63,682 nt of DNA from a bacterium (GCA_041664945.1 JBAYJY010000005.1:1-63682), one strand, 5' to 3'. Numbered from the stretch's first letter, positions 17,567 to 45,176 are shown. The notes: generated by a model from the sequence alone, not told the origin. Made by a program: numbers and translations.

Positions 17567-17622
17567 TTCAGTTCTCCTGTCGGTATGCCAAAACAAATAA
17601 AAGAGCAAAAACGTATTCATGT

Positions 17623-25366: not shown

Positions 25367-27424
25367 TTGAGAAAGATTAAACTAAATCTACAGGTCCCCG
25401 CATCCGTTATTTGTTGCTTTTTATCATTATCGCTCTATAACACAACCTCATACGCGGAGCCCGCCGGGAGTGTTCCCGCGGAGCCGGCCGCCACAACCCG
25501 CGACTGGTCTCAACCCGGCCCAGACTCTTACTCCATGACTCCTTTCGCTCCGACTTTCGAGGAACGCAAGCTCGCCTACCTCCAGTTCTGCTCCGCAAAT
25601 ACGCGCGGCTCCATCTTCGGCGCCATCTGCTCCGCAACACTCGGCAAACCTGTCTCCATCAACGATGCCGATGTGAAGAAGAACGTGGACACCCTGATCG
25701 CTCAAAAAGACTGCGCCGACTTCACGGCCATCCGCGTAATACGCGTTTTGTACAAGAATAAGCAGTATAACTTTCTCAAACCTGAACAGGAGGAGGCCCT
25801 GCGCAACGCCATGCTGGGCTTCAAATACTGGGTCGACGAGCCCGGCGCCGACGAAATGATCTCATGGACCGAGAACCATCAAATACTCTTCCACGCCTCT
25901 GAATACCTCGCCGGCCAGCTTTATCCCGACGCCGTTTTCAAAAATAACGGCAAAAACGGCGCATGGCGCATGCAACACGCCAAGCCGATGATTCTTAAAT
26001 GGATCGAGCGGCGCGCGCGCTGGGGCTTCAGCGAGTGGGATTCAAACGTTTATTACGATGAAGACCTCGCCGCCATCGTCAACCTCGCCGATCTCGCGCA
26101 GGACCCGGAAGTCGCGAGGCAGGCGAAACTGGCGGTCGACCTCATGCTTCTCGATATCGGCTCCGACCTCTTCAAGGGCGTTTACGCAACCAGCCACGGG
26201 CGCACCTACTACAACGAAGTGATCACCGGGAGAAGAGACTCAACGATGTCCATCTCGAAACTGGTCTGGGGCATAGGCAAATTCAACAGCTCGGAAAGCA
26301 TGTCCGCGCTCCCCGTCATCACCGGCGGATACACGCCGCCCGCCGGGATCGTCGCCCTCAATCAGAGCTACGATATGCCCGAATTCCAGAACCTCGAACG
26401 CCACGGCATTCCCCTGAACAAAATAACGAAGTACGGGCTCAGCTTCAAAAACCTCGAAGATGTGCCGACGCTCTTCGGCATGGGCATATACTCGCAGCCC
26501 GAAATCGTCGACACCATGCTCACGTTCGCCGACAAATATAACCTGTGGAACCACCCTTTCATGAAGGAGGCCGGAGAAGCCGTCCGCAAAATTCCCCGCA
26601 CCGGCCAACTCGGCAAAACCCTGCGCGCCATGCCCCCCATAGAGCCCTACCGCACCCTGCTCGGCGAAGCGAATAAAATAACCTATCGCACTCCCGATTA
26701 CTCGCTTTCCACCGCTCAGGACTACCGACCCGGCGAAATGGGCAACCAGCACCACATCTGGCAGGCCACGCTCAGCCCGGACGCCATCGTATTCGTCACC
26801 AACCCCGGATCGCTTGAAGACACTCACGAGCGAACGCCAACCTTCTGGGGCGGACAAAACAGGTTCCCGCGCAACGCCCAATATAAAAACGTTCTCATTT
26901 CCATCTACAACATAAAAAATGAAAAAGCGATCGCCGAGCGCAACCTGTTCCTTTACACACACGCCTTCTTCCCGAAAAAGGAGTTCGAGCGCGTCGAGGA
27001 GTCCGGCGGCTGGGTGTTCGGCAAAGTAGCCGACGGCTACATCGCGCTCCGCTCGCAGGCGCCGGTTAAATGGACCGCCGAAGGGCCGCAGGCCGGCCTC
27101 GAACTCGTCGCCGAAGGCGCTAAAAACATCTGGATATGCGTTATGGGCCGCAGCGCGGTTGACGGCTCGTTCGAGGATTTCATGTCGAAAATCAAAGCGG
27201 CAAAAGTGAACTATGAAGGCGTGAAAGTTTCATTCGACGCGCCGGGCATCGGATCCGTTTCATTCGGCTGGACCGGCCCGCTAACCGTCAACGGCGCCGA
27301 AATCCCGCTGAAGAATTATCCGCTGTTCGACAACCCATACGCCCACTCCGAATTCGACTCCGGCGTTATCACGCTCACCGGCGGCGCCGCCGAACAGGTT
27401 CTCGATTTCTCAATCGGCAAATAA
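25367..27424 (+). CDS. secreted protein, possible alpha/alpha-toroid plus beta-sandwich polysaccharide lyase (heparinase II/III-like)
   Basis: TTG start 7 nt after AGGAG, with a signal peptide. The central WTENHQILFHASEYLAGQLY and following helical repeats suggest a toroid fold. The family call is by resemblance only. Confidence 0.5.
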   Translation: MRKIKLNLQVPASVICCFLSLSLYNTTSYAEPAGSVPAEPAATTRDWSQPGPDSYSMTPFAPTFEERKLAYLQFCSANTRGSIFGAICSATLGKPVSINDADVKKNVDTLIAQKDCADFTAIRVIRVLYKNKQYNFLKPEQEEALRNAMLGFKYWVDEPGADEMISWTENHQILFHASEYLAGQLYPDAVFKNNGKNGAWRMQHAKPMILKWIERRARWGFSEWDSNVYYDEDLAAIVNLADLAQDPEVARQAKLAVDLMLLDIGSDLFKGVYATSHGRTYYNEVITGRRDSTMSISKLVWGIGKFNSSESMSALPVITGGYTPPAGIVALNQSYDMPEFQNLERHGIPLNKITKYGLSFKNLEDVPTLFGMGIYSQPEIVDTMLTFADKYNLWNHPFMKEAGEAVRKIPRTGQLGKTLRAMPPIEPYRTLLGEANKITYRTPDYSLSTAQDYRPGEMGNQHHIWQATLSPDAIVFVTNPGSLEDTHERTPTFWGGQNRFPRNAQYKNVLISIYNIKNEKAIAERNLFLYTHAFFPKKEFERVEESGGWVFGKVADGYIALRSQAPVKWTAEGPQAGLELVAEGAKNIWICVMGRSAVDGSFEDFMSKIKAAKVNYEGVKVSFDAPGIGSVSFGWTGPLTVNGAEIPLKNYPLFDNPYAHSEFDSGVITLTGGAAEQVLDFSIGK

Positions 27425-27460: not shown

Positions 27461-27926
27461 CTACCCATCCAGAACATCGCCCACTTTTACCGTAAGAGCC
27501 ATCACTGAAAACGGCTTGGAAATATAGTTGACGTCATTGTCGAGCATCCCGTGATGGACAAAGGCATTCTCGGCGTAGCCAGACATGAAAAGCGTTTTCA
27601 TGTTGGGACAGATTTTCTTGAGCCTTTTCGCAAGTTCGTTTCCGCTAATTTCCGGCATGACTATGTCCGTGATCATAAGCTGGATCGAGTCGCCCTCGCG
27701 CTCGCAGATACCCCAGCAAATCGATCAGGAACGGATTCACATCATCGACCATTCCCGTCTCGGCATCGAGGATCAAAATGCCGTCTTTCGCCCACTCAAA
27801 GAGCCGCCTATACCGAAGCTCAGACTCTCGCAAAGCCTCGCCGCCGGCCTTTCCTGAAATCGGCTCCGGCCCTTCTTTTGACGGCAGGGGTTCTTCCTTC
27901 GAATCGAGTTTCTTTTTTCCGAACAT
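27461..27926 (-). pseudogene. remnant of a PAS/hybrid histidine kinase paralogue (N-terminal PAS fragment fused out of frame to C-terminal half of a receiver domain)
   Basis: ATG 27926 with AGGAG opens MFGKKK...[38 protein letters not shown]. After GY the frame shifts. The +1 frame reads [30 protein letters not shown]...ISKPFSVMALTVKVGDVLDG, which matches the last 80 aa of the kinase at 34247-37369. Confidence 0.65.
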
Positions 27927-28096: not shown

Positions 28097-28789
28097 CTAT
28101 TCAGAGAATTCCGGGTACAGCGATTTTAAGCAGTCGGGGCAAAGGCCATGCGAGAACTCCGCTTCCGAGTGGTCCCGGATATATTCTTCGATCCTGATCC
28201 AGAACCCCTCGTCATTGCGTATGTTTTTGCAGTTTGCGCAGATCGGCAAAAATCCTCTCAGGACTTTAATTGTGTTTTGCGCCTGTTCGAGGGCCGTGTT
28301 TTTCTTCTGAAGCTCCCTCGCGAGGTTTATCATCTCATTGTTCATCCTTGCAAATTCATCGTAAATCCGACTGTCGCGCCCCGCTCCGGCGCAGTTGGCT
28401 TGAAATAATTCGCGGCTCAACGCTTGAACGGCGAGAGAAGTGTCGTTGTCGAGAAAACGCAGCGTGAAAAGCATCTCGCATACATCAAATCGCGTTCTCG
28501 CGCAGAGAATGATAAATCCGTCCTGAGCCGCGATGCCGGAAAAAATCAGCGTTTCGAGCGCCGAGCCGTCAGACACGTTAATATCCCAACCGGAAGACAT
28601 CCCGTGGATTTGAAGTTCTTCAAGGAATCCATCAAGTTTCGCGATATCATCATGGCCTATAAAACTATGAAAGCGCATGCCGGGGCTTATGTGTCCGCTG
28701 AAACCCATGTAGTCGAGAACGATAGCTGAGACAATCCCCTTTTCATCGCACCTGAACACAAACCCCGCTCCGGTTTTGCCGGTTTCCAT
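28097..28789 (-). CDS. PAS-like sensor protein with coiled coil and C-terminal CxxC...CxxC module
   Basis: 230 aa. N-terminal roughly 115-aa PAS-like fold, a coiled coil (MNNEMINLARELQKKNTALEQAQ) and C-terminal LPICANCKNIRNDEGFWIRIEEYIRDHSEAEFSHGLCPDCLKSLYPE. Confidence 0.6.
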   Translation of the reverse strand: METGKTGAGFVFRCDEKGIVSAIVLDYMGFSGHISPGMRFHSFIGHDDIAKLDGFLEELQIHGMSSGWDINVSDGSALETLIFSGIAAQDGFIILCARTRFDVCEMLFTLRFLDNDTSLAVQALSRELFQANCAGAGRDSRIYDEFARMNNEMINLARELQKKNTALEQAQNTIKVLRGFLPICANCKNIRNDEGFWIRIEEYIRDHSEAEFSHGLCPDCLKSLYPEFSE

Positions 28790-28830
28790 TTATTCTTACT
28801 CCGTCCTTTAAAGATTGTCTTGCGCAGCCC

Positions 28831-29232
28831 CTAAACAGATGTTTTGATGCGGGCAATCATCCACTTGAAATAGGGAACGATTTCGGCGGCTTGATCCTGA
28901 GAAAGCGTTTCGCCCACAACTTTCGCGTATATCTCAAGACGGTTTGCCATGTGGGCCGCCTGGACTCCATCGTGCGGCAGCCGTTCGAGCGCCCATTCCA
29001 TCTGATCCTCGAGAAGCGAAACCTGCCCGGACACCATCACGGCTTCGAGCATCCGTGTCGTGAACTGAAGGCCGATAGTTATGAGTTGTTCGGCTTGGGC
29101 GCCGTGATGTTCCACCTCGGCGCTGAATTCCATCGAACGCCTCACAGTTTCGCGAATAATCACGGCTGAAGCCGCCCTGAAAGCCTCAAGCGCCCCTGCG
29201 GTAATCGGCGCGAGGGTATTGCCGTCAGCCAT
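28831..29232 (-). CDS. small all-helical protein, phycobiliprotein/globin-like (no Cys)
   Basis: 133 aa, predicted helical throughout. The C-terminal LSQDQAAEIVPYFKWMI resembles the C-terminal helix of phycobiliproteins. No cysteine is present, so covalent bilin attachment is not possible. Confidence 0.45.
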   Translation of the reverse strand: MADGNTLAPITAGALEAFRAASAVIIRETVRRSMEFSAEVEHHGAQAEQLITIGLQFTTRMLEAVMVSGQVSLLEDQMEWALERLPHDGVQAAHMANRLEIYAKVVGETLSQDQAAEIVPYFKWMIARIKTSV

Positions 29233-29258
29233 GTTTCACCTCTGTCTTAATCTTAAAT

Positions 29259-29972
29259 TCAAATTTCACGCTCCGCAAGCCATCTATTCGCCACCTCAAT
29301 AGCCTGTTGCGCATCGGCGGCATAACCATCCGCGCCGACTTGCAGCCAGAGATCGGGCGCCACGTTGAAAAGCCTGCCTCCGACCAATATCTTTACCGAT
29401 TTGCATGCCTCGTCCGCCCGCACCCTTCTCACAAGGCTCATGGCCGCTTCGAGATTGAATGTGATCGTGGCGGAAACCGCAAGAAGGTCCGCGCCGCGCT
29501 CCACCACTGTCTCGACTATGCTTTCCTGCGGCGAGCTCGCACCAAGATAATATGTGTCCCATCCTTCCATCTCAAAAAAATCCGCGACCATTCGTATTCC
29601 GATTTCATGCAATTCTCCGGCGACGCTTGTGGCGACAAGCTTTTTCCCGTTTTTCTTTGAGGAAAATATCATCGGGTACATCTGCGACATCACCATCTGC
29701 GTCACATATGTGCAGAAGTGTTCCTGCGCCACGGAGATTATGTTGGCCTGCCATAGCCGGCCGACCTCTAACTGGGCCGGTTGAAACACACGCAGGTAAA
29801 TATCGCGGACAGCGGCTCCTTTTTCAACTGCATCCAAAATCAACCGCCCCGCCTCATGCCTGTCGCCGGCAATCAATGTTTTCATATAATCCTGAGCCAG
29901 ATGCCCTAATGGCGTTGTATCTTTCCAAAACTGATGCTTGAGCATTTCCTCGTTTTTGAGAATCTCTTTCAT
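29259..29972 (-). CDS. stand-alone cobalamin-binding protein, CarH/AerR-type photoreceptor module (helical bundle plus Rossmann B12-binding domain)
   Basis: 237 aa. W74-x9-E84-H85 (GRLWQANIISVAQEHF) lies in the N-terminal helical domain. E120-x-H122-x2-G125 (GELHEIG) provides a lower-axial His, followed by SATI and VGG motifs of the B12-binding Rossmann fold. No DNA-binding or kinase domain. Confidence 0.75.
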   Translation of the reverse strand: MKEILKNEEMLKHQFWKDTTPLGHLAQDYMKTLIAGDRHEAGRLILDAVEKGAAVRDIYLRVFQPAQLEVGRLWQANIISVAQEHFCTYVTQMVMSQMYPMIFSSKKNGKKLVATSVAGELHEIGIRMVADFFEMEGWDTYYLGASSPQESIVETVVERGADLLAVSATITFNLEAAMSLVRRVRADEACKSVKILVGGRLFNVAPDLWLQVGADGYAADAQQAIEVANRWLAEREI

Positions 29973-30011
29973 TTCCGCATGTCCTTTTGCCTGAGATAAT
30001 TTGCCAAAAAA

Positions 30012-33000
30012 CTAATCATCCAACACGCTGCGGACTAATTGCGACAGTTCGGCGACCTTGAACGGCTTTTGTATGAAACCCTCAACGCCTTCGTCCAGCA
30101 GCGCGCTGATCCGCCCGTCCGAACTGTAGCCGGACGCGATTATCACTTTCACATCCGGGTTTATTTTGACAAGCGCCCTGTAAACATCCTGCCCGTCCAT
30201 TTCCGGCATGATCATATCCAATACGACAAGATCAATTTTATCGCGGTTCTTATTATATGTTGCCAGCGCTTCTTTTCCACTCTTAGCCCTGAAAGTCCTG
30301 TATCCGCATTTCAAAAGCATCTTTTCGCCGACTTTTGCCACAGCATCTTCATCGTCGACAATAAGAATGCCCTCGTCGCCGCGCAGGACAGCGCCGGCGT
30401 CTTCCTTTTGTTTATCCTGCTCTTTCAGATTCAGCAACGGCAGGTAAATATAGAAAATGGTCCCTTTGCCGGGCTCGCTGTCAACCTCGATATGCCCGTT
30501 GTGGCTTTTTATTATCCCGTGCGTGATAGACAGCCCGAGTCCGGTTCCCTTGCCCACGCTTTTTGTCGTGAAGAACGGCTCGAATATGCGTGTTTTAACT
30601 TCCTCCGGCATGCCGGCGCCTGTATCTGAAATCTTCACGAGACAATAGTCCCCGGATCGAACATCCGGATAGTCTTTGACATATTCGTCATCAAGCTCGA
30701 CTTTCATGCATTCGATCGCCAACTCGCCGCCATCCGGCATGCTGTCGCTGGCGTTATTGCAGATGTTCAGAAACGCCTGAAACACCTGATTCGCGTCGAC
30801 AGTCACAACAGGCGGTTCGGTCACGGCGGTTTTGATTTTGATTTTCTTATTGACGCTTCGTGAAAGAACGATTGAAAGGTCGCTGATAATAGAACTGATG
30901 TCCACGCTCTTGATATCGAGCTTTTCCTTGCGCGCAAACGTGAGAAGCTGCATGGTAAGTTCTTTCGCCCGGTTCGACGCCGTCATGATTTCGTTCAACT
31001 CATCGTAGAAATGCTCTCCGGGCGACAATTCCATTTTCGCCATCTGCGCGTTCCCCATAATCACTGCAAGCATATTATTGAAGTCGTGAGCGATCCCGCC
31101 CGCCAGCGTGCCGATCGCCTCCATCTTCTGCGCCTGAAGAAGCTGCTGCTGGAGAGCGTCTTTTTCCTCTTCCGCGCGCTTGCGTTTGGAAATATCACGG
31201 CACACGGCGAACACGAGTTTCTTTCCAGCGCATACCGCCCCGTTGGAGCTGACTTCAACGTCGATAAAGCTGCCGTTTTTGCAGCGGTGGCGCGTTTCAA
31301 AGTGATCGCCTTTCTCGTCAACAAGCCGTATCATTTCCAGCAGTTGCTCTTGCGTCCACTGGCTGTCCCAATCCCATATATGGAGTTGAAGCGCTTCCTC
31401 GCCGGAATACCCCAGCATTTCGGCAAATCTTTTGTTCGCCTCTAATACTCTCCCTTCCTCGTCCATGACAACAATGCCGTCGCTCGACTGCTCGACCAAT
31501 ATGCGCCTCCGGATTGCCTCGTCCGCCAATGCCTCTTCCGTCCGCTTGCGTTCGGTGATATCGTTAAATGTGACAATGAGCTTGTCGGCAAGAAAAGAGG
31601 CGTAGAGTTCGCAAATGCAGACAGAACCATCTTTGCAGCTTATCCGGTATTCACCGGTGTTGACTGGCTGCCGGGATTGGCGGGCTATTTCCAAAAATGG
31701 CTTCCATCTGTTAATCACCTCAAGGCGATAATCGGGATCAGGATAGGCAATCTGATACCATTCAGCCACCGTAGGCGCTGTGTGTCCGAAAAGGGAAAGA
31801 GCGCTGCCGCTCCAGAAATGAATTATTTCATCATCCGCGTCGACAACCGCAACCGGAAAAGGAGCGACATCAAGAACGGCTCGAAAATTCTGTTCGCTTT
31901 TACGAAGCGCCTCTTCCGCCTGTTTGCGGTCGGTTATGTCCGTATGCGTGCCGCACATTCTTAACGGTTTCCCTTGTTCGTCTCGCTTCACAACTTTTGC
32001 CTGATCCAGTATCCATTTGTACCGCCCGTCTTTGGCGAGCATTCGATATTCGATCCTGTGCTGCGGCGTCCGGCCTTCCAAATGATCCTGTATGGACTTC
32101 CATGCGGCTTCCCGGTCATCCGGGTGCTGGAGATCGGACCACTGCTTGATCGTGAACTCTATTTCTTCGAGCGTATATCCCAGCATCCCGGCCCAAAGCT
32201 CATTGCGGCAAACCTCCCCCGTCTCTATGTTCCAGTCCCAGTAACCAAGCTGGCTGCCTTCAAGCACGAGCGACATTCGCTCTCCGCTCTCCATCAACGC
32301 ATCCTCCGCCTGCTTGCGTTCTGACAAATCCACATGCGTTGCCTGATAGTAAAGCAGTTTCCCCTCGGCATCGATTATTTTCCGCGCGGCGACAAGAACC
32401 CAGAACCGCGCTCCGTCGCGGCGAAACACTTCAACCTCCCTTGGCTCCATGAATCCCTTCTCGTCGAGAATTCGCAGAATTTCTTTCCGATCCTCTGGAT
32501 TTGAGTAGAACGATTTTCCTATGTCAGACACATCAGCCATAATTTCTTCCGGGCTTTCGTAGCCATACATCCGCGCATACGCCGTATTAGCGTGAACCAA
32601 TCTCCCGTCGGGAGTCGCCGCTGAAATGCCCATCATTGTGTTATCATACAGACTTCGGTATCTTCCCTCGGATTCCCTCAGCGCATCCTCCGCCAGCTTG
32701 CGCTCGGTGATGTCCTCATGCATCAAAACAAATCTTTTGGGACTCTCATTATTGTCGTACAAGGGGAATACAGTTCCCCGAAGCCAAACCGGAGCGTCCG
32801 GAAATTCGGGGGACACATCACGGGTGTTAAAATAAACTGCGGGGAAATCAACAGCTTCGCCTTTTTTAACGCGTTCAAATATCTCTTCAAATCCCTGCTT
32901 CTTTAATTGAAGATCATTAAAGATCGACCAATCGGGAGGCGGCACGGAACCAAATAGCCTTGTGTGCGCCGAATTAACTTTGAGCGTAAATCCATTCTCG

Positions 33001-34142
33001 TCCACAATTTGAATTGACATCGGATTTTTATCAATTATTTCCTGCAATATGTTTTCCGCCAGCTTGCGGTCGGTTATGTCGACTATGTTTGTAATGAAGT
33101 ATTGCGGCGTTCCTGTCTCGTCATTGAAAATCGTCGTGCTTACGTCGGCCCATACGATGCCGCCTTCCTTGCGGACATATCGCTTCTCCCATCGATAGAA
33201 ATCCGCTTCTTTCTCATGGAGGCGCCGGATATATTCGTATGACTCCTCAAGATCATCGGGGTGGGTGATCAGGTCGAAACTCAACTGCTGCAGTTCCTCG
33301 ACTGTATAGCCAAGCATGCGGGCAAATACATTGTTGACCCTTATCAGCTTTCCATCCATCCCCGTCATGGACTTGCCGACAGTCGACCTCTCAAACATAG
33401 TCCGGAATCTGTTTTCGCTCGCCCGCAGTTCATCAGCCTTAATATTTCGTTCATTAAACTTCCTGAAAACATTCCACGAACCAAGCCCTATATAAACCAG
33501 GTAGCCGACAACGCTCATGGTTATCAAATAAAAATAGGCGGGCTCTTTATAAAGCAAAATGGGAGGCGACGTAATGTCGCTGTGCGTCATTAACCCCGTG
33601 TATTCCGATATTGCGACGAACAGAAACAAGCAGTTTATAAACGCTATATGTTTTGCCAGCGTTTTTTTAGAAGTCACGGAACTCAATGGCACAATGTGCC
33701 CGAAAAAATACAGGCAAAGGGGCGAAAGCAACCCGCCGGAAAATTTCATCGCGAGAATCGACAGCGCCTCGCCCGTATATATGAAAACATCGAAAATAAT
33801 CCTGCCGCGCTCCGCGCTTTTCGCTCTTGAAACGCAGATCATTGCGATAAAGCGGTTGAGAACGATTAGAAAAGTGAAAATCATTGCCGGCGCAAGCCAC
33901 TTCGCATCGAAAACTATCCTGTACCGCGCCGAAGGAAAATATATTTCCCTGCCGAGCAAAAAAATCGTTCTGCCGTCTCCGATATACTGCATGCCGGCAT
34001 TGAAAGCCGCGAAAATGATGCCGAGAACGCCGAGGACAATTAATACGCCTTTCCATCCCCGCGAGAGAAACCAGCGCGCATCCGACTGTAAATCAGCCAT
34101 GTTTCCATCGTTCGGGAGGTTATCTTTTTTGAATATACCCAT
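30012..34142 (-). CDS. membrane-bound multi-PAS hybrid sensor histidine kinase (HisKA, HATPase, C-terminal REC)
   Basis: Start at ATG 34142 (AAGAGGA 8 nt upstream); the ORF track extends to 34193. About 230-aa polytopic N-terminus, six PAS/PAC modules separated by DITERK-type linkers, H-box [19 protein letters not shown] lid, and REC acceptor region LVVLDMIMPEMDG. Confidence 0.85.
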   Translation of the reverse strand: MGIFKKDNLPNDGNMADLQSDARWFLSRGWKGVLIVLGVLGIIFAAFNAGMQYIGDGRTIFLLGREIYFPSARYRIVFDAKWLAPAMIFTFLIVLNRFIAMICVSRAKSAERGRIIFDVFIYTGEALSILAMKFSGGLLSPLCLYFFGHIVPLSSVTSKKTLAKHIAFINCLFLFVAISEYTGLMTHSDITSPPILLYKEPAYFYLITMSVVGYLVYIGLGSWNVFRKFNERNIKADELRASENRFRTMFERSTVGKSMTGMDGKLIRVNNVFARMLGYTVEELQQLSFDLITHPDDLEESYEYIRRLHEKEADFYRWEKRYVRKEGGIVWADVSTTIFNDETGTPQYFITNIVDITDRKLAENILQEIIDKNPMSIQIVDENGFTLKVNSAHTRLFGSVPPPDWSIFNDLQLKKQGFEEIFERVKKGEAVDFPAVYFNTRDVSPEFPDAPVWLRGTVFPLYDNNESPKRFVLMHEDITERKLAEDALRESEGRYRSLYDNTMMGISAATPDGRLVHANTAYARMYGYESPEEIMADVSDIGKSFYSNPEDRKEILRILDEKGFMEPREVEVFRRDGARFWVLVAARKIIDAEGKLLYYQATHVDLSERKQAEDALMESGERMSLVLEGSQLGYWDWNIETGEVCRNELWAGMLGYTLEEIEFTIKQWSDLQHPDDREAAWKSIQDHLEGRTPQHRIEYRMLAKDGRYKWILDQAKVVKRDEQGKPLRMCGTHTDITDRKQAEEALRKSEQNFRAVLDVAPFPVAVVDADDEIIHFWSGSALSLFGHTAPTVAEWYQIAYPDPDYRLEVINRWKPFLEIARQSRQPVNTGEYRISCKDGSVCICELYASFLADKLIVTFNDITERKRTEEALADEAIRRRILVEQSSDGIVVMDEEGRVLEANKRFAEMLGYSGEEALQLHIWDWDSQWTQEQLLEMIRLVDEKGDHFETRHRCKNGSFIDVEVSSNGAVCAGKKLVFAVCRDISKRKRAEEEKDALQQQLLQAQKMEAIGTLAGGIAHDFNNMLAVIMGNAQMAKMELSPGEHFYDELNEIMTASNRAKELTMQLLTFARKEKLDIKSVDISSIISDLSIVLSRSVNKKIKIKTAVTEPPVVTVDANQVFQAFLNICNNASDSMPDGGELAIECMKVELDDEYVKDYPDVRSGDYCLVKISDTGAGMPEEVKTRIFEPFFTTKSVGKGTGLGLSITHGIIKSHNGHIEVDSEPGKGTIFYIYLPLLNLKEQDKQKEDAGAVLRGDEGILIVDDEDAVAKVGEKMLLKCGYRTFRAKSGKEALATYNKNRDKIDLVVLDMIMPEMDGQDVYRALVKINPDVKVIIASGYSSDGRISALLDEGVEGFIQKPFKVAELSQLVRSVLDD

Positions 34143-34246: not shown

Positions 34247-37200
34247 TCAACCGTCCAGCGCCTCGCGCACCTTGGCTGTCAGGTCCTGCAGCGAAAACGG
34301 CTTGGAGATGAAGTGAATATTCTGGTCCAGAATTCCATTGTGGACAATCGCGTTTTCAGTGTAGCCGGACATGTAAAGCGCTTTGATGTGCGGACATATT
34401 TTCGCGAGCCGCTCCGCGAGTTCGCTCCCGCTCATTTCCGGCATGACCATGTCGGTTATAATGAGATGTATCGAATCGCCTTCGCGCTCACATATAAGCA
34501 GCGCCTCGCCTCCGTTTGCGGCCGTGTGGACCTTATAACCCGACGCTTCGAGAGCTCGTTTTGTAAGGCTGAGCACTCCCGGTTCGTCCTCGACAACCAG
34601 TATCGTTTCCGTTCCCGTTGTCGTCGTGAATTTCCGCTTCTCCCGAACCGCAGTCTCGGCGATTGAAAGTTCCCGGCGCAGATAAATCTTGAATGTCGTC
34701 CCCTCGCCGGGCTCGCTGTAGACCCAGATATGCCCCCCGCTCTGATTGACTATGCCATAAACAGTCGAAAGGCCAAGGCCGGTCCCTTTCCCTTTTTCCT
34801 TTGTCGTGAAAAACGGCTCGAAAATATTTTCCTTTGTCGCTTTGTCCATCCCGCATCCGGTGTCCGACACCGAAAGCGCGACATATTGCCCTGGCGCAAC
34901 TTCCGGATGCTCTTCCGCATATGCCCCGTCCAATTCGACATTTGCCGTTTCTATAGTGAGCTTGCCTCCCATGGGCATTGCGTCGCGCGCGTTGACGGCG
35001 AGATTCAAAACCACCTGCTCGATCTGTCCGGGGTCAGCCTTAACCTTGCCGAGGTCGCCGGCGAGGCAGGCGATAAAATCAATGTCCTCGCCTATGAGGC
35101 GCCGGAGCATCTGTTCTATCCCGGCAATCGTATCGTTGATATCCAGTATTTCAGGAACGAGCGCCTGCCTGCGGCTGAATGCGAGAAGCTGCCGCGTCAG
35201 GTCCGCCGACCGCTCACCGGCTTTGAGAATTTCTTTCATATCCTCCAGCAGCGGATCGCCCGGCCTAAGCGCGTCGATTGCCATTCCCGCATAGCCGTTG
35301 ATGACGGAGAGCATGTTGTTGAAATCGTGCGCTATGCCGCCCGCGAGCCTTCCAACCGCCTCCATTTTCTGAGACTGCCGGAGTTGCTCCTCCGACTTCC
35401 GCAGATCTTCTTCAGCCTTCTTGCGGTCCGTGATATCCTCCGAGATTCCCAATAGAAACTTCGAGACGCCGTCGGCGCCTCTTATGCAAACCTTCCTTGT
35501 GTGCAACAGCCGCTGACCTTTTCCGGCTGTCAGAATTGGCTCTTCCGGGATGTCCAGCATCTCGGCTTCTCCATCGAGAACTTCCCGGTCTTTGGCCATG
35601 AAATGGGCCGCCTGCTCGGGAGGGAAAAGATCTAAGTTGTTCTTGCCGAGCAAGTCTTTGCGCCCATACCCCAAAAGCTCCTCGCCCGCGCGATTGAATA
35701 TGACAAACCTCAGTTCCTCCGCCTCTTTCAGGAAGATCATGTGCGGGACATGCTCCACAACCGCTTCGAAAAGGGCTTTCGATTCCAGCAGTTCCTCCTC
35801 CGCCCGCTTGTGGGCGAGCGCAATCCCGACGCTTGCCCCAAACCCCTCAAAAAACAGGATCATCTCCCGCGTGAAACGGTTGGCGCGGCGGTCGTTCAGT
35901 TGCAGCAACCCGACAATCTCGTCGCCGGAGCGCAACGGTATTAGCGCGACCGACTCGTAGCCCTCTCCGTTGCAGCGGTTGCGCGTGCGCGCCTGCCGGT
36001 CCGCTTCAGTCGTCTTGACTAACAGCTCCGTCGTGCAGTTGGACCAGAAACTGCCGCCTTCCGTGAAAAACGGAAGCGATGTGTCTGTGCGTCCGCAGAG
36101 AATGTTGCCGCACATGCAATCCAGCTCCGGATTCCCCTGCCCGTCCCGAATGATCTTTCCATCCTTGCCATACGCGCACAGGCTCCGCTCGGCAACAACA
36201 AAATCCTCCGGAAATCCCAAAGTCCCATAGTACGGAAAATCATCGCCCTCCCGCATCCGGATTCCAATGGCCTCGAAATCCGTATTTTTCTTAATCACCC
36301 GCAATATTCCTTCAAGCATGCTCTTGGTTTCCTGCGGACGGTTCATATGTTCGAGCGCTTCGCGCGCAAGCCGCTCCCGGCTTTCAAATTGCTTGCGCTC
36401 GGTGATGTTCACGACGCTGGTGATTATGTACAGCGTCGCTCCGTTTTCGTCCCGTATGAGCGTGGAGCTCTCATCGGCCCAGACGATGCCGCCGTCCTTG
36501 TGAATGTATCGCTTCTCTATCCTGTATGACTCGCGCTCATTCGAAAGGAGACTGCGGAAATATTCCCGGCTTTCCGGCGCATCGTCCGGATGCGTAAATT
36601 GCAGGAAGTCGCGCTCGCGGAGATCCTCGACGGCATAACCGAGCATATCGGCGAAAGCCTTGTTTGTCACCAACATAATCCCATCAGGCGACGCCAGCGA
36701 TTTGCCCACCGTGGATCGTATGAATATCTCACGGAACCGGTCCTCGCTCTCCGACAGCGCCTTTGTTCTTTCAGCAACCCTGTCTTCCAACTGCTCGTTC
36801 AGCAATTTCAACTCATTCTGCGCCTGGATCAATTCGTTGTTTCTGTTGACCGCCGCTTCATAGGTGGAAATGAGAAGCGTGAGCATCTGCTGCTGGTCGG
36901 CCGTGATGAAACGCCGTTTCTCGGCGAACTGGATTTCCACCCCCACCCGAACCCGCTCGCTGCTTACTAATTTCCTGTTGGCGAGCATCTGTTCGATGCT
37001 GGGCAGAAGATAACTCTCGCTGTATGGCTTCGTTATAAAATTGTCCGCCCCGCACGCCAGCCCCTCGAGCACATCTGTTGAATCAGACAGGGAAGTAAGC
37101 AGGATCACCGGTATGTATTCCGTGCTTACATTCGCTTTGATCTGTCTGCAAAGCTCGTATCCATCCATTTCCGGCATGATGATATCCGTTATAACAAGTT

Positions 37201-37369
37201 GCGGCTTGTAGTTTTTCAGCAACTCAAGCGCCTGTCTGCCGTTTCCGGCCGCCGTCACTCTGAATTCATGTTTTTCCAAGAGGTATTTAAGTTCCTCGGC
37301 CTGCGTGGGACTATCCTCGACGATAAGTATTTCGACAGGTTCCTGTTGGGATTTCAAATGTTCATTCAT
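34247..37369 (-). CDS. hybrid sensor histidine kinase REC-PAS-GAF-PAS-HisKA-HATPase-REC
   Basis: Start at ATG 37369 (MNEHLKS), overlapping the cheB stop by 8 nt. N-terminal REC ([13 protein letters not shown]), PAS, GAF-like and PAS modules, H-box [16 protein letters not shown], and C-terminal REC ([13 protein letters not shown]). Confidence 0.85.
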
Positions 37370-38426
37370 TTTTTCCTTCTTTCGGCGCCTGCGCAAGCGT
37401 CATTAAGATATCCGCAATGCCTTCCGGCGGAAGAATATATTTTGCCGCGCCGAGCCTGATCGCCTCGCCCGGCATTCCATGCACGATTGAGCTTTCATTA
37501 TCCTGCGCGATCGTGACCGCGCCTCTTTCCTTCATCATTTTCAATTCCTCCGCTCCGTCTTTTCCCATTCCGGACAGCAACACACCCGCCGCGTTCGCCC
37601 CGAACTCCTCTTTGACGGTTTTAAAAAGATATGCGACGGACGGCCGCAAGCCGTTCTCAGGCCCGTGATCGCTTAGAAATATACGCTTGTCGCGCCCCAC
37701 TCCCATGTGAATTCCATCCGGGGCGATATATGCGCGTCCCGGCTCCGGACGCTCTCCATGCTTCGCCACGCTCATTGGAAAAAGCGTCGCTCCGCTAAGC
37801 CACTCCACAAATCCATTCACAAATCCAGAAGCTATATGCTGAACGATCAACAGGGAAACAGCCAGATTTCCCGGCAACCTTGAAAGTATTGTTTTCAGCG
37901 CCAACGGCCCGCCGGTTGACGCCCCGATCGCGATAATTCGAACTCCCGTACTTGTCTCCGGCTCATTTTTGATGGAAAGAGGAACACCAGCGGGAGCCTT
38001 CAACTCGAGCCGGACGCGTCTAACAACTTTGACCTCCGACATGAGTTTTACCGTCTGAATCAGCTCCCTTGCGGCTTTCCCGTGTTCGGGATGTCCTATG
38101 CCCGGCGGACGCAGAATCACAGCCAGCGCGCCGGCTTCGAGCAATCGGAACGTTCCGGCTATCTCCTGCGCTCCGGAGCTCGCGCTTACGATGACAATCG
38201 GCGTCGGCTGCGTTTCCATTATGCGGCGGGTCGCCTCAATTCCATCCATCCTTGGCATGTGGATGTCCATTGTAATTATGTCGGGACGCCCGCGCTTTAT
38301 CATTTCAATCGCTTCCAGCCCGTCGCCGGCGACTCCCATCACCTCTATCGCGGGGTCGGATGAAAGTATGTAAACGAGCAACTCACGCGCCACCGGCGAA
38401 TCTTCGACTATCATTACCTTGATCAT
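37362..38426 (-). CDS. cheB: protein-glutamate methylesterase CheB (REC plus methylesterase)
   Basis: 354 aa. REC (IITMDIHMPRMDG) and a CheB catalytic domain (IGASTGGP, HM, GMGKDGA). Confidence 0.9.
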   Translation of the reverse strand: MIKVMIVEDSPVARELLVYILSSDPAIEVMGVAGDGLEAIEMIKRGRPDIITMDIHMPRMDGIEATRRIMETQPTPIVIVSASSGAQEIAGTFRLLEAGALAVILRPPGIGHPEHGKAARELIQTVKLMSEVKVVRRVRLELKAPAGVPLSIKNEPETSTGVRIIAIGASTGGPLALKTILSRLPGNLAVSLLIVQHIASGFVNGFVEWLSGATLFPMSVAKHGERPEPGRAYIAPDGIHMGVGRDKRIFLSDHGPENGLRPSVAYLFKTVKEEFGANAAGVLLSGMGKDGAEELKMMKERGAVTIAQDNESSIVHGMPGEAIRLGAAKYILPPEGIADILMTLAQAPKEGKNE

Positions 38427-38448
38427 TCAGTTCCCCATTCGGCGTTTT

Positions 38449-40818
38449 TCAAATCAGCTTCTTTATCACTTCAAGCAGATTGCTCTGGTCGAAACTGCTC
38501 TTGACTATGTAGGCATTCGCGCCCACTTCGATTCCTCGCTCGCGGTCCTCTCGCGATTCGAGCGCCGTCACCAGAACCACCGGCAACTCTGCGTATTTCC
38601 TGTCTTCCCGAATCCGCGCCGTGAGTTCAAACCCGCTCATCCTCGGCATGTCCACATCCGAAACGACCAGATCAAACTCTCCGCTGCGAACTTGCGTTAA
38701 AGCGTCCATTCCGTCCACCGCCGTCGCCACACGGTAGCCCGCCGTTTCCAGTATGTTCTTTATCAGCATCCTCGACGTGATCGAGTCCTCCGCCACAAGA
38801 AGGCTTCCCGTTCCGGCCGCCGGCTTCGCCTCCGCCGCCGCGGTTTTCGCCCTCCCGCCGGACCGCACGGCGGATTTCATCAGATCGGTCGCGTTTATAA
38901 CCGGAACGACTTTGCCCGTGCCCAGAACCGTGGCCCCCGCTATGTTGCGCACCCGGCTCAACTGCGCCCCCAGCCCTTTCATCAGTATTTCCAGCTCGCC
39001 GAGAACCTCGTCCACCTGAAAGGCGATCCGTTTGTCGCCGGACGCCAGAACCACAACGGTAATATGGTCTGGCGCGGATGCCCCAGACGCCGGAATCGCT
39101 TCGTTGCGCATCGGCAATTCAAGAGCTTCCGCAAGCCTGACCATCGAGATGATTTGCCCGTTCAACTTGATGGTCTCCCGGTTCTCCACCGTCTTTACCT
39201 CATCGGGATTCACTCTCACAACGCATTCCGTGTTGATGGTGGGCAGGATAAAAACGCTTCCCTCCACACGCGCCAGAATGCCCTGAAAAGTCGTGAGCGT
39301 CAGCGGCAGAAGAAGCCTGAAGTTTGTTCCGGCGCCGGCTTTCGAGTCCGCTGATACAAGCCCGCCGAGTTTATCCGCTTTCTCGCGCACGATCGCCAGA
39401 CCCAGTCCGCGGCCTGATATGTCCGTGATAATCGGGCTTGTGGTCACCCCCGACTGGAAAATGAGCGACAGCGCCTCTTGCGCGTCCAGTTTGCCGGCCG
39501 CCTCAGGCGAAAGAACGCCTGCCTTAATCGCGGCCGAAAGGACCCGCTCAACATCAACGCCGGCCCCGTCGTCTGATACTATAATTTCTATACTGCGGCT
39601 GTCTTTTACGCTGAAGCCGAGCGTTATCGTCCCGCGCGCCGGCTTGTTCTCACGCGCCCGTTCTTCGGGCTTTTTCATGCCGTGGTCCACGCAGTTCCGA
39701 ATGATGTGCAGCAGCGGGTCTTTAAGCTCGTCGAGTATCCTCTTGTCAATCTCGACCTCCGCCCCGCGAATGATAAGCTCCACTTCCTTGCCCTGATCCC
39801 GGGCGAGGTCGCGCACGAATCCGGGAAACCCCTCGACGAGCGACGACACCGGAAGCATCAGTATTCTTTTCATCGCATCAAGATGCTCGTCCACCATTCG
39901 CCTCAGAGCGCGCTGGTCCTGCTCAACCGCCTGAGTTAATTCCGCTATCCGATGCTGGAACCCGTTCAATCGCGCTTCGTTCAACTCTATCAACTTGTCA
40001 AGCAGCGGGGCGCTCTCTTCGCGCCTTCTACTCTTCAGTCTTGTCCATTCCGTTTTCCACAAGACAAGCGCCTGCTCGATCTCACGCAGTTCGGCGGCCC
40101 GCTGGCCGGCCGACATTTTTGCCGAAATCATCTCTTCCGCCTGCAGCAGAAGCGGAGCAAGCTTGTCCGTTGATATTCTCACGGTTTCCGCAATGCCCGG
40201 CGAATTCCGGGGAGATGACTCGATTTCGCCTTTTGATTCCGGCGCGCGTTCTGCGGGTTCGCTCTTCGGCTCTTGCGGCGAATTTCGGGGAAATGACTGG
40301 AATTCGCTTTTTAATTCCGGATCGTGTCCCCTGAATTCACCAATCCCGGACGGCTGCGTTTCTCTGGCCGGCTCCGAAGCTTTCGTTTTGGCCGGCGCCG
40401 CGGCTCCTCTGGAAACATTGGTCAGCAGCCGGATCAGCTCTTTTGTTTGCGCTTGTTCAACAGTCGCCGCCTGTTCAGGGTCCGCCGCCAATGCAAGCCG
40501 CTCGATGCCGTTTACCGTCTTGTGAAACAGGTCGCACATCCCGGGCGACAAAACAATTCCCTTCCTTTTCAACGCGGAAAACACGCTTTCCAAAGGCTGG
40601 CAAACCGACTCGACATCCTTCAGATTCACCGAACGGGCCGCGCCCTTGAGGCTGTGCGCCTCGCGAAACACGATCTCGATTATTTCCGCGCTTCTTTCGG
40701 CTTCAGCAGTCTTTTCAAGCTCGAAAAGGCTGGAACGGAGCGTCCTTATATGCTCTTCCGCCTCGATCCGAAATGTGGCGCGGAGCCGTTTGAGGAATTC
40801 TTTATCTTTTGCGTCCAT
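38449..40818 (-). CDS. cheA: chemosensory histidine kinase CheA fused to a C-terminal receiver (CheA-REC)
   Basis: 789 aa. Hpt with AHSLKGAARS, a long low-complexity linker, HATPase (DDGAGVD, SGRGLGL), a CheW-like P5 domain and REC (LVVSDVDMPRMSG). Confidence 0.9.
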   Translation of the reverse strand: MDAKDKEFLKRLRATFRIEAEEHIRTLRSSLFELEKTAEAERSAEIIEIVFREAHSLKGAARSVNLKDVESVCQPLESVFSALKRKGIVLSPGMCDLFHKTVNGIERLALAADPEQAATVEQAQTKELIRLLTNVSRGAAAPAKTKASEPARETQPSGIGEFRGHDPELKSEFQSFPRNSPQEPKSEPAERAPESKGEIESSPRNSPGIAETVRISTDKLAPLLLQAEEMISAKMSAGQRAAELREIEQALVLWKTEWTRLKSRRREESAPLLDKLIELNEARLNGFQHRIAELTQAVEQDQRALRRMVDEHLDAMKRILMLPVSSLVEGFPGFVRDLARDQGKEVELIIRGAEVEIDKRILDELKDPLLHIIRNCVDHGMKKPEERARENKPARGTITLGFSVKDSRSIEIIVSDDGAGVDVERVLSAAIKAGVLSPEAAGKLDAQEALSLIFQSGVTTSPIITDISGRGLGLAIVREKADKLGGLVSADSKAGAGTNFRLLLPLTLTTFQGILARVEGSVFILPTINTECVVRVNPDEVKTVENRETIKLNGQIISMVRLAEALELPMRNEAIPASGASAPDHITVVVLASGDKRIAFQVDEVLGELEILMKGLGAQLSRVRNIAGATVLGTGKVVPVINATDLMKSAVRSGGRAKTAAAEAKPAAGTGSLLVAEDSITSRMLIKNILETAGYRVATAVDGMDALTQVRSGEFDLVVSDVDMPRMSGFELTARIREDRKYAELPVVLVTALESREDRERGIEVGANAYIVKSSFDQSNLLEVIKKLI
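40199..40320. repeat. in-frame 78-bp tandem duplication inside the CheA linker
   Basis: 44-nt cores at 40199-40242 and 40277-40320 are 38/44 identical and 78 nt apart. They encode the repeated PE(L/S)K(S/G)E(F/I)(Q/E)S(F/S)PRNSP. Confidence 0.7.
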
Positions 40819-40872
40819 CTTTTCGCCGCCTTATGTCGCATTTTTCATTAATGCGATCAGAAGAAATTCTGG

Positions 40873-42504
40873 TCATACCTTGAACTGTTCCGCCAGCCCC
40901 TTGAGTTTCTGGCCAAGCTCGTGAAGATTTCTCGCCGCCGTCTCCGATTGCTTCATGCTCGTAGCGGTTTCAGCGCCCGCCTGATTGATGTTTTCCATGG
41001 CGACGCCTATCTGATCCATTCCCACAACCTGCTGCTGGCTCGATGCCACGATCTGCGTCGCCGCCTGCGCCGCTTCATCGCTGGTCTCCGCCAGCGACCG
41101 GATCGCCTCCCCGGCCTGCGCCGCCTGCTTCACCCCCGACTCAACAGCTTTGCTACCCTGCTCAGTCGCCATCACCGCCGCGCTCGTCGCCTTCTGTATA
41201 TCGCTCAGAATCCCGCGCACCTGAGTTGTTGCCTGCTTCGACTGTTCCGCCAGACTCCTGATCTCCTGCGCCACGACCGCAAACCCTTTGCCCTGCTCTC
41301 CCGCTCTCGCGGCTTCTATGGCTGCGTTGACAGCAAGCAGGTTGGACTGGTCCGCTATATCCGTCACGGAAGCGATTATTCCCCCTATGGACTGGCTCTG
41401 CTCGCTCAGACTCACTATTGTGTTGGCTATAGATTCCATCTGCTCGCGGATGTTGCTCATTCCGGCAGTGGTTTCCTCGACGGCTCTCCGGCCCGCTTGC
41501 GTAGTCTGGGCTACGCGCTGCGAACTGTCCGAAACATTTTTCGCCTTCTGGGAAGAAAGCTGCGCCGCCTGCCTCACCTCTTCAACAGTAGTCGTGGTTT
41601 CGCTGATGGCGGTCGCTGATTCGGCCGCCCCGGAGGCTACCTGCGTAGTCGCCGCGAGGATTTCGCTCGCGGTTGCGCTGAGTTGATTGACTGCTTCGGA
41701 GATATCCTTGGTCGAGCGTCGGAGATTCTCCACCATCTGCCGGAAAGTCCGAATCAGGACTCCAACCTCGTCCGTCCGCTCTTCGGCGACGACATCCACT
41801 GTCAGGTCCCCGGCGGCTATACGCGAAGCATACGTTGAGATCACTCCGAGCGGCCTCGCGATTGTATGGTTAAGAAACAGTATCATCAACCCGCCTATGA
41901 GAAACGCGGATACTCCAATGAGCATAAAGATGCGGATTGCCGTCTGCGACGCTTGCATATCAGCGGCAAGTTGTTTATGTTCGGCGTCGGCTGCCTTGTC
42001 ACCCAGTTCATTTGCGATAGAACGCATCTGATCGTAACGTTTTGATTGGATGCCGAGAATCAATGGTTTAGCTTCTTCTATCTTTCCCTGATCGATAAGT
42101 CCGATTACCACCTCCCGGGTCTGGCGATATGCGGCTAAAATTTCCGAATATTCTTTCATTTTGCCCTGACATACCGGATCCTTGTCATTTTTCAGAATAT
42201 CGCTTAAAAAATCATCTATTGCCCGGTTGCGCTCAAGGGTGTTTTGATCGAGCGCTTTACGAACTGTATCGTTGGGATTCAACATCTCAAGCAGCATGTT
42301 TGCCCGCAGTCCGTTCTCGTCCACCCTCAACTTCATGAAACCAATGGATTCTTTGTGATTAATTTCGGCCAAATTCTTTTCGGACTGCGTTATTGCCGTC
42401 AGACTCCGGTAAGCGGTGATGGTAATTACCGCCAGCAGTAACCACATTGCTCCGAAACCGACAAGTAGTTTGGCGAGCGTGGAAAGATTGGTGAATCGTT
42501 TCAT
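40873..42504 (-). CDS. mcp: methyl-accepting chemotaxis protein (TM, four-helix-bundle sensor, TM, HAMP, signalling domain)
   Basis: 543 aa. Two TM helices flank a roughly 170-aa helical periplasmic region, followed by HAMP. Conserved signalling hairpin ([40 protein letters not shown]). GGGAGGG RBS. Confidence 0.9.
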
Positions 42505-42531
42505 GGTAAATCCCTCCCAAATTTTGTGTGT

Positions 42532-43167
42532 TCAATCTATCTCTTGATGAACGATGATTTTTTCATCGTTCAAAATCTTTTCAGCATCAAGAACTATCAG
42601 CCGCTCTTCGCAGACGCCCTTCAAATATTCCGCGCCGATCCCCGTGACCGTCTGCGGCGCCGCCTGTATCCCGTCGAGCGGGATCGATCGCGCGCCGAGT
42701 ATGGCGTCCGCCAGAATCCCGAACTCCATCCCGGCGTTTCGTATGATGATCACTTTGTTTAGTTCGCCTATGCCTTTATCAGGCAGATTGAAAAATTTCT
42801 TCAGGTCCACCACCGATAGAATCCGGCCGCGCACGTTGATTATTCCGAGAACGAACGGCGGCGTTCCGGGCAGCGGCGTGTAATCCGTCAGCGGATACAC
42901 TTCGAGCACAAACGCGGATTCGATGCCGTAGTTTTCAAAAGCGAGCCGGAATTCAATGATTTCTATGAACCCGCGGCCCTCGGCGGCTTTTTCCGGCTCC
43001 CGGGCGAGGTCACGCGCCCGCGACCTCAATATGGATAGCTTTTCCTCCGCCGATGGCTCGGCGCCGCGCCCCAACTCTTCCCGCGCGGTTTCCATTCGGC
43101 TGTGTATTTCGCTCCAGTCAACAGCATTCCCCTGTTGCCGGGATGGTTTGTCCATGCCTGTTTTCAT
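42532..43167 (-). CDS. cheW: CheW-like coupling protein (long form)
   Basis: 211 aa. The CheW domain (FRLAFENYGIESAFVLEV...ILGIINVRGRILSVVDL) follows a roughly 60-aa N-terminal extension. 4-nt overlap with cheR. Confidence 0.85.
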   Translation of the reverse strand: MKTGMDKPSRQQGNAVDWSEIHSRMETAREELGRGAEPSAEEKLSILRSRARDLAREPEKAAEGRGFIEIIEFRLAFENYGIESAFVLEVYPLTDYTPLPGTPPFVLGIINVRGRILSVVDLKKFFNLPDKGIGELNKVIIIRNAGMEFGILADAILGARSIPLDGIQAAPQTVTGIGAEYLKGVCEERLIVLDAEKILNDEKIIVHQEID

Positions 43168-45136: not shown

Positions 45137-45176
45137 GAACTCCTGTCCGGCGGCGCCGGTTCGATGAGAATAACGG

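Follow-up and report, generated by a model that had tools for sequence, protein, structure and literature searches.

The question raised by this locus is whether a small B12-binding protein, encoded in a tightly packed group of signalling genes, is a light sensor, and which protein would receive its signal. The locus lies in a 63,682-nt stretch of bacterial DNA (GCA_041664945.1 JBAYJY010000005.1:1-63682), which at its full length is referred to as the window. Gene coordinates were taken from reading of the open reading frames (ORFs) and from independent gene calls on the source contig, a metagenome contig (ENA ERZ27249449), and these agreed with an earlier note on this DNA that had described four co-directional genes spaced by only 26-41 nt. 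The genes, in the direction of their reading, are the following:

30012-34142, minus strand: hybrid histidine kinase of 1376 aa, 39 nt from the next gene (the longest ORF extends to 34193)
29259-29972, minus strand: B12-binding protein of 237 aa, 26 nt from the next gene
28831-29232, minus strand: small helical protein (globin) of 133 aa, 41 nt from the next gene
28097-28789, minus strand: CxxC-tail protein of 230 aa, the last of the four

Our answer is that the 237-aa and 133-aa proteins probably make up a two-chain photocobilin, the state of which would be read by the N-terminal domain (the partner domain) of the neighbouring 230-aa protein. This reading was built from the domains identified, the aligned motifs, the predicted fold, homology and conserved gene neighbourhoods, and from these we infer cofactor binding, light response, physical contacts and output.

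The composition of the 237-aa protein was evident from Pfam, which placed a four-helix cap (PF02607, E = 5.7e-15, 55.7 bits against a cut-off of 23) before a Rossmann B12 domain (PF02310, E = 1.2e-24, 86.9 bits against 32.1) and found no further domain, in agreement with the claim that a DNA-binding or catalytic domain is lacking. When the PDB was searched with phmmer, the closest solved structures were the photocobilins SasPcob (8J2W/8J2X, E = 9e-23) and AbPcob (8J2Y, E = 9e-22), which outranked corrinoid methyl carriers, MetH and CarH (5C8A, E = 3.6e-7). The two cobalamin motifs were located exactly where the earlier note had put them:

29718-29753, minus strand: W74-x9-E84-H85, the adenosyl-pocket motif; LWQANIISVAQEH pairs with SasPcob LWQANRWSVAQEH in the phmmer alignment
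29598-29618, minus strand: G119-E-L-H122-E-I-G125, an E/DxHxxG motif with the predicted lower-axial His122; GELHEIG pairs with SasPcob GEWHALP

W74, E84-H85 and H122 matched the Trp, the Glu-His pair and the lower-axial His of SasPcob column for column. The SasPcob equivalents are Trp61, Glu71-His72 and His108 in the numbering of the structure paper (the chain numbering is shifted by six), and in the crystal structures these residues stack on the adenosyl ribose, bridge the dimer and ligate the cobalt from below (Zhang et al., 2024; PMC10979010). The occurrence of the W, E and H residues at CarH-type positions is thus not a matter of chance. Four elements (GxxW, EH, GxxH and GxxxP) have been proposed for light-responsive B12 domains by authors who devised this signature specifically to tell such domains from others (PMC11796333), and the 237-aa protein has all four of them (G71xxW74, EH, GxxH and, as GxxxP, G144-ASS-P148). 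By its sequence, the protein carries the full signature of a CarH-type adenosylcobalamin (AdoCbl) light sensor and is classed as a photocobilin-type light-sensor module, expected to respond to light; AdoCbl is likely bound His-on via H122, and light likely cleaves its Co-C bond.

No helix-turn-helix (HTH) or MerR DNA-binding domain was detected in the 237-aa protein with Pfam. The NCBIfam equivalog model of CarH reached 52.5 bits against a cut-off of 400 with only the B12 part covered, and the NCBIfam matches to MtgC, MtbC and CarH all lay far under the curated cut-offs. Because the MerR-type DNA-binding domain of CarH is missing, the protein is not a transcription factor. The nearest database homologues (57-66% identity) were mostly globin-B12 fusions, ~355 aa long, in which a photoglobin or PF00502 domain lies at the N-terminus. 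A neighbour-joining tree of B12 domains grouped seven stand-alone proteins together, with the 237-aa protein of the window outside that cluster.

Direct sequence searches with the 133-aa protein yielded nothing significant in the PDB, Pfam or NCBIfam, and just two relatives were returned by a word-indexed homologue search. An exhaustive HMMER search gave 139 representative clusters of this family, mostly stand-alone proteins of ~135 aa. Eight longer members were scanned, and the B12 domain pair was found N-terminal to the globin in four and C-terminal to it in two, the remaining two having one a partial sub-threshold B12-binding match and the other no match. AlphaFold2 with an alignment of 84 sequences modelled the 133-aa protein as five helices with a predicted local distance difference test score (pLDDT) of 95.4, superseding a run with three sequences (pLDDT 70); this model, together with the zero Cys residues of the sequence, bore out the description of an all-helical, Cys-free protein. 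A Foldseek search of the PDB with the model gave phycobiliproteins as 50 of the 50 top matches, with TM-scores relative to the query (TMq) of <=0.77 and a root-mean-square deviation (rmsd) of 2.0 A. The profile of the 84 sequences matched allophycocyanin beta (ApcB) in the PDB at 1.2e-4, the globin domain of AbPcob (8J2Y, residues 218-317) at 1.8e-3 and that of SasPcob (8J2W, residues 225-318) at 0.029. The family was further aligned by hhalign with the N-terminal photoglobin domains of the B12-protein homologues (98% probability, E = 1.9e-13), and a hidden Markov model (HMM) of those photoglobin domains matched the 133-aa ORF of the window at 1.2e-6.

A resemblance to the C-terminal helix of allophycocyanin-type proteins had been pointed out in the earlier note, and it has a counterpart in a PF00502 match of residues 66-127 to model positions 91-153, which at 13.8 bits (E = 0.058) stays under the cut-off of 22.2; PF00502 was matched by 29 of the 84 family members at E up to 1, the best at 6.9e-7. 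Family profile, Foldseek and hhalign thus agree on the phycobiliprotein-like character that had been suggested, and the 133-aa protein is, judging from the modelled fold and these alignments, a photoglobin-like globin of the phycobiliprotein type.

Two conserved positions of this globin bear on whether it holds a bilin:

29071-29073, minus strand: Gly54 codon, the site of the bilin-coordinating Asp (Gly in 82 of 84 family members)
28993-28995, minus strand: Trp80 codon, a conserved Trp (Trp in 83 of 84 family members)

It had been remarked that the protein lacks any Cys for bilin attachment. This is correct for the sequence, and 51 of the 84 family members are likewise Cys-free, but the absence matters little because photocobilins hold biliverdin non-covalently (PMC10979010); the relevant loss is that of the Asp. 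The column of Gly54 is that of the Asp in the photoglobin motif CXQD, I51-T52-I53-G54 standing opposite C-x-Q-D in the hhalign alignment, and CXQD was present in 47 of 103 fused globin-B12 homologues. The same column, when the family profile was aligned with PDB entries, was occupied by the AbPcob His that stands in for SasPcob Asp270 and by the Asp of CIRD in allophycocyanin (ApcB, 9v7j_s), the phycobiliprotein motif being CXRD. The clade therefore has neither of the residues by which its relatives hold a bilin. Trp80 lies 26 residues past Gly54, the same spacing as between Asp270 and Trp296 of SasPcob, and it aligns with the photoglobin and AbPcob Trp. Trp296 of SasPcob touches the bilin D ring, and AbPcob, with His at the Asp270 site, shows poor biliverdin binding (PMC10979010). 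The RGMC motif of the BBAG-2 globins was also looked for, and no G[ML]C occurred in any of the 138 family matches. Bilin binding by the 133-aa globin is a question of judgement rather than of measurement, and our judgement leans slightly against it.

To see what accompanies such a pair elsewhere, we compared eight other independent loci with a stand-alone B12 homologue: L001 (a Chloroflexia metagenome-assembled genome), L002 (an Anaerolineales metagenome-assembled genome), L003-6, L008, L009-10, L020, L021 and L022. A locus search with a 5-sequence alignment returned two genomes. The B12 gene is directly followed by a globin gene of the 133-aa family in the window and in all eight other loci, with overlaps or gaps of <=28 nt. 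The gene after the globin encodes, in seven of the eight, a histidine kinase of 403-426 aa whose first ~170 residues have no Pfam match; L001 instead has a partner-domain kinase just upstream of the pair. These first ~170 residues are common to the 230-aa protein of the window and the kinases next to the pairs, and BLASTP gave 33% and 26% identity to the N-termini of adjacent kinases (E = 5e-30 and 1e-17). Two segments of the 230-aa protein are involved:

28409-28789, minus strand: N-terminal partner domain, residues ~1-127, homologous to the N-termini of the adjacent kinases
28256-28408, minus strand: predicted helical linker, residues 128-178, shared with the kinases up to the H-box (helicity inferred from the alignment)

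An HMM of the partner domain matched the adjacent gene in nine of nine loci, the window included; three of the matched loci were outside its training set, with E values of 1e-38 to 1e-46. It gave no second match in the window, and neither hybrid kinase was matched. Along the linker, YDEFARMNNEMINLARELQKKNTALEQ stands opposite YDEISRLNNELVxLQRELxKKNAELE of the kinases, and past it the kinases run on as FLGMAAHDLRNPL (the H-box) and the 230-aa protein as FLPICANCKNIR followed by a tail with four Cys residues (the Cys4 tail). The 230-aa protein had been called PAS-like with a CxxC...CxxC tail. The tail is present, but the PAS label could not be confirmed: direct searches with the protein gave nothing significant in the PDB, Pfam or NCBIfam, its N-terminus had no PAS match in Pfam even at E up to 5 and PDB profile matches at chance level only, and hhalign of the partner domain against the window's own eight PAS domains returned 1.9% probability. 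Conservation of the whole four-gene order had also been raised; the B12 gene, the globin gene and the gene for the partner-domain protein are kept together in nine of nine loci, whereas the upstream hybrid kinase is not. The 230-aa protein is a better candidate for the direct partner than the giant kinase.

Two loci of this set showed further details. The globin gene beside the B12 gene of L022 (1572-1993) was called as two pieces of 49 and 107 aa, which may reflect a frameshift or sequencing error of a metagenome contig. In L008 the B12-globin-kinase trio has a KaiB homologue (5420-5719) as its next gene, with a REC-PAS-HisKA_3 kinase after it, and this neighbour may tie the light-sensor module to clock-type components.

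The output end of the 230-aa protein differs from that of the kinases:

28097-28255, minus strand: C-terminal Cys4 tail and stop codon, C184-x2-C187...C217-x2-C220, with conserved His207 and His214

The consensus of its last ~50 residues reads LPICAxCKKIRDDxGYWxQIExYIRDHSEAEFSHGLCPDCxKKLYPE. No Pfam or NCBIfam model matches this tail, and a database search gave 2272 matches. Among the matches listed, the motif falls in the final 45-110 residues in 120 of 120 (in the final 45-72 in 113 of them), and it sits behind REC, PAS, GAF, MASE, Cache or HAMP domains. The tail presumably binds metal, which would probably be zinc, and it is a candidate for an uncharacterised output domain in its own right. 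HalOD2 and TackOD1 (PMC5847659) were considered as its identity and rejected as different domains. The order in L001 is kinase (with the partner domain), a receiver (REC) protein with Cys4 tail, B12 protein and globin, and the 230-aa protein of the window looks like a one-protein shortcut of this two-component version. Its closest small CxxC-tail homologues (P0264, P0275 and P0279) adjoin globin-B12 fusions of 364-377 aa, in three of five neighbourhoods examined. At another locus, L017, two adjacent genes both carry the Cys4 tail.

The explanation that we favour joins these observations into one pathway. The 237-aa protein would hold AdoCbl in the base-off/His-on form through His122, with W74 and E84-H85 surrounding the adenosyl group, and light would break the Co-C bond and alter the conformation or the state of oligomerisation, as happens with CarH and photocobilins. 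The 133-aa globin would dock on the B12 domain in the manner of the fused globin domain of SasPcob, and it may or may not carry a bilin, since the Asp is Gly in this subfamily; such docking is likely, because fusions occur in both orders and the adjacency of the two genes is invariant. The N-terminal domain of the next gene product would then read the state of the pair and relay it via the helical linker to an output, which would be a HisKA/HATPase kinase core in most genomes and, in the window, the probably zinc-binding Cys4 tail. The step in which the pair is read by the partner domain, and the Cys4 tail of the 230-aa protein is driven in response, is plausible, and on balance we expect it to occur. 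The module may pass light information into the chemosensory-like gene cluster in which it lies. Stand-alone photocobilins have been reported to control an enzyme in trans through contacts between the proteins (PMC10979010).

Several points weigh against this explanation. The locus is known from sequence alone, and in promoter and terminator scans the signal was not above that of shuffled controls. In the 133-aa globin both residues that secure a bilin in related proteins, the Cys and the Asp, are missing; among the scanned genes of the window there was no heme oxygenase and no bilin reductase; and the gene content, which includes a 2-hydroxyglutaryl-CoA dehydratase component and formate dehydrogenase-type genes as neighbours, suggests an anaerobe. 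For the tail, no published description was found by keyword or sequence-word literature search; the N-terminal domains of P0264, P0275 and P0279 were unmatched by the partner-domain HMM, and two close tail homologues, P0263 and P0292, have no B12 gene nearby. The Cys4 tail is a general module and not a B12-specific one.

The strongest alternative is that the B12-globin pair serves as an accessory light gate for the upstream giant kinase and a Che-like phosphorelay, the 230-aa protein being a bystander or a second accessory. The kinase itself was as described: Pfam identified HisKA (4.1e-8), HATPase_c (4.5e-23) and Response_reg (6.6e-23) besides PAS families in this membrane-anchored protein, and six PAS-terminal D[IL][ST]xRK motifs confirmed the six-PAS hybrid architecture. 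It closes an uninterrupted series of same-strand genes that begins with an HTH-REC gene, and just 39 nt separate its stop codon from the start of the B12 gene. L003 and L009 likewise have PAS hybrid kinases upstream of the pair, L021 has a PAS kinase that lacks a receiver, and in L011 a PAS hybrid kinase comes just downstream of the CxxC protein; L009 also contains a CheD gene close to the module. The upstream neighbour nevertheless varies, being an unrelated gene in L008, L002 and L020, and the gaps are 119-534 nt where kinases do sit upstream, whereas the invariant neighbour is the partner-domain protein, whose HMM matches neither hybrid kinase of the window. The suggestion that the pair is wired to the giant kinase thus comes down to adjacency, with an upstream neighbour that is not conserved and a 230-aa protein whose family is, and we regard it as unlikely.

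A second alternative would have the module sense the availability, form or redox state of cobalamin in the dark, with the globin as a chromophore-free adaptor, following a logic like that of AerR. AerR-type proteins respond to the form of cobalamin, and the loss of the bilin-binding Asp and Cys in this globin subfamily, the lack of a heme oxygenase among the scanned genes and the suggested anaerobic setting, given above, all speak for it. Against it, the complete GxxW, EH, GxxH and GxxxP signature devised to mark light-responsive domains is kept (PMC11796333), and in all characterised relatives AdoCbl bound in such a pocket is photolabile by nature (PMC10979010). We rate this dark-sensor reading as quite improbable. 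The idea that the 237-aa protein is a corrinoid methyl carrier (MtbC/MtgC/MtaC-like) with unrelated neighbours, for which its best NCBIfam matches by E-value (MtgC at 2.7e-19, pyl_corrinoid at 1.7e-15) and the name 'methanogenic corrinoid protein MtbC1' given to homologues by some databases could be quoted, was rejected as very improbable on its sub-cut-off scores (69.5 bits against 370 for MtgC, 56.9 against 215 for pyl_corrinoid) and its gene context, with no methyltransferase genes nearby, a Wx9EH cap motif, photocobilins as the best solved relatives and globin and signalling proteins as partners in nine of nine loci.

To our knowledge, photocobilins are the only photoreceptors in which B12 and a bilin are combined. 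The two-chain photocobilin proposed here shares with SasPcob (8J2W/8J2X) and AbPcob/AbDPcob (8J2Y) the B12 cap and Rossmann domain with W-x-EH and E/DxH, and a five-helix phycobiliprotein-like globin that lacks the attachment Cys and has a Trp 26 residues past the Asp position (PMC10979010). It differs from them in several respects. The photocobilins are single chains, whereas the window has two ORFs separated by a stop codon and a 26-nt gap; SasPcob has Asp270 and AbPcob a His where the globin of the window has Gly; and, in place of a diguanylate cyclase or a STAS/SpoIIE system, the downstream partner has a dedicated N-terminal domain on a Cys4 tail or, in relatives, on a kinase core.

The earlier note knew of no characterised example of this combination, and in this respect it has to be corrected, as there are precedents. 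Photoglobin and B12-binding modules in two-component operons were described computationally in 2021 (Schneider et al., PMC8717448), where stand-alone photoglobins are reported to adjoin B12-binding_2 and B12-binding genes nearly always, in operons with kinases and response regulators. The window and the eight other loci have the same operon arrangement, with a globin homologous to, and distinct from, phycocyanin; the Asp that defines the photoglobin family (D49 of helix 3, often in CXQD) is a near-invariant Gly in the clade of the window. Sections 3.2 and 3.4 of PMC8717448 make no mention of a conserved partner domain in the third gene or of a Cys4 output. The structures of fused photocobilins, and their control of enzymes, were reported in 2024 (Zhang et al., PMC10979010), and split pairs of bilin- and B12-binding genes were noted for BBAG-2 clusters (Rockwell et al., 2023, PMC10151467; PMC13446030). 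The BBAG-2 proteins are likewise stand-alone globins of the photoglobin lineage beside stand-alone B12 proteins, both homologous to photocobilin domains; they carry the RGMC motif, bind biliverdin, have heme oxygenase and pre-PcyA neighbours and come mainly from Myxococcota. Scans of the window, by contrast, revealed no bilin-biosynthesis genes.

More distant systems share single parts. CarH (TtCarH, 5C8A) has the same AdoCbl module with Wx9EH and lower-axial His, whereas the protein of the window would have a globin and a signalling protein as its partners. Allophycocyanin and other phycobiliproteins share the globin core (TMq 0.77, rmsd 2.0 A over ~122 columns), but the 133-aa globin is without their N-terminal X-Y helical hairpin (133 against ~160 aa) and without CXRD, and it stands in a non-phototroph signalling context rather than in light harvesting. 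The AerR/PpaA-type antirepressors, which bind a CrtJ/PpsR-type repressor and use a cap His as upper ligand of OHCbl, are alike in logic only, as stand-alone B12 proteins acting through a partner, and no CrtJ/PpsR-type gene was seen among the scanned window genes.

Three features appear to be new: a globin clade with Gly for Asp, a partner domain conserved across the loci and the Cys4 tail as an output. No description of them was found in the papers and sections consulted. The function of stand-alone photocobilins was called unclear in the 2024 structure paper (PMC10979010), and the window together with its eight relatives points to a candidate physiological partner and to a path by which B12 photochemistry could lead to histidine-kinase signalling. 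The ~127-residue domain may serve specifically as a receptor for split photocobilins, in which case it would be the natural partner that is missing for the stand-alone ones. The Cys4 tail, with its thousands of homologues, is placed in a functional context; it may act as a new kind of signalling output able to replace the whole kinase-to-response-regulator step, an idea that comes from L001 having a kinase plus REC-Cys4 where the window shows a direct fusion. For the Gly-for-Asp clade the question is whether the globin half requires a bilin at all, and its members may be bilin-free adaptors or holders of a different chromophore. All three taken together, the receptor domain, the new output and the globin variant, would amount to a version of the photocobilin principle with B12 only or with a new chromophore, a joint reading that we put forward as tentative and rather doubtful. 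As the parts are separable, they would have a modest but real value for the design of optogenetic tools.

Thirteen co-directional genes make up a chemosensory-like cluster, and the module lies at its 3' end. The run upstream of the module comprises the following genes:

45177-45743, minus strand: HTH_17-REC protein
44654-45136, minus strand: CheW
43164-44657, minus strand: CheR-TPR protein
42532-43167, minus strand: second CheW
40873-42504, minus strand: methyl-accepting chemotaxis protein (4HB-HAMP)
38449-40818, minus strand: CheA-REC protein
37362-38426, minus strand: CheB
34247-37396, minus strand: hybrid kinase of 1049 aa, preceding the 1376-aa kinase

The chemosensory-like set at 37362-45743 is complete and resembles a Che pathway with non-motility output. 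On the other side of the four genes, directly downstream, a fragment of a third hybrid kinase was found:

27461-27926, minus strand: hybrid-kinase remnant, a PAS start joined out of frame to the last 65 receiver residues

The gene calls for this remnant were a 93-aa piece (PAS_8) and an overlapping 65-aa piece (REC), the latter 63% identical to the C-terminus of the 1049-aa kinase. It has the look of a gene that lost a large internal part, or else of an artefact of assembly, and an intact PAS-histidine kinase-REC gene occupies its position, after the CxxC protein, in L011/L012.

Further along the window, two proteins without any Pfam match were noted, of 1636 aa (17690-22600, minus strand) and 685 aa (25367-27424, plus strand), both with hydrophobic, signal-peptide-like N-termini. 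A GAF-GGDEF diguanylate cyclase (8400-9500, minus strand) and a PilZ-REC protein (16796-17620, minus strand) are also encoded, and with these two genes nearby, cyclic di-GMP signalling genes share the region with the Che-like cluster.

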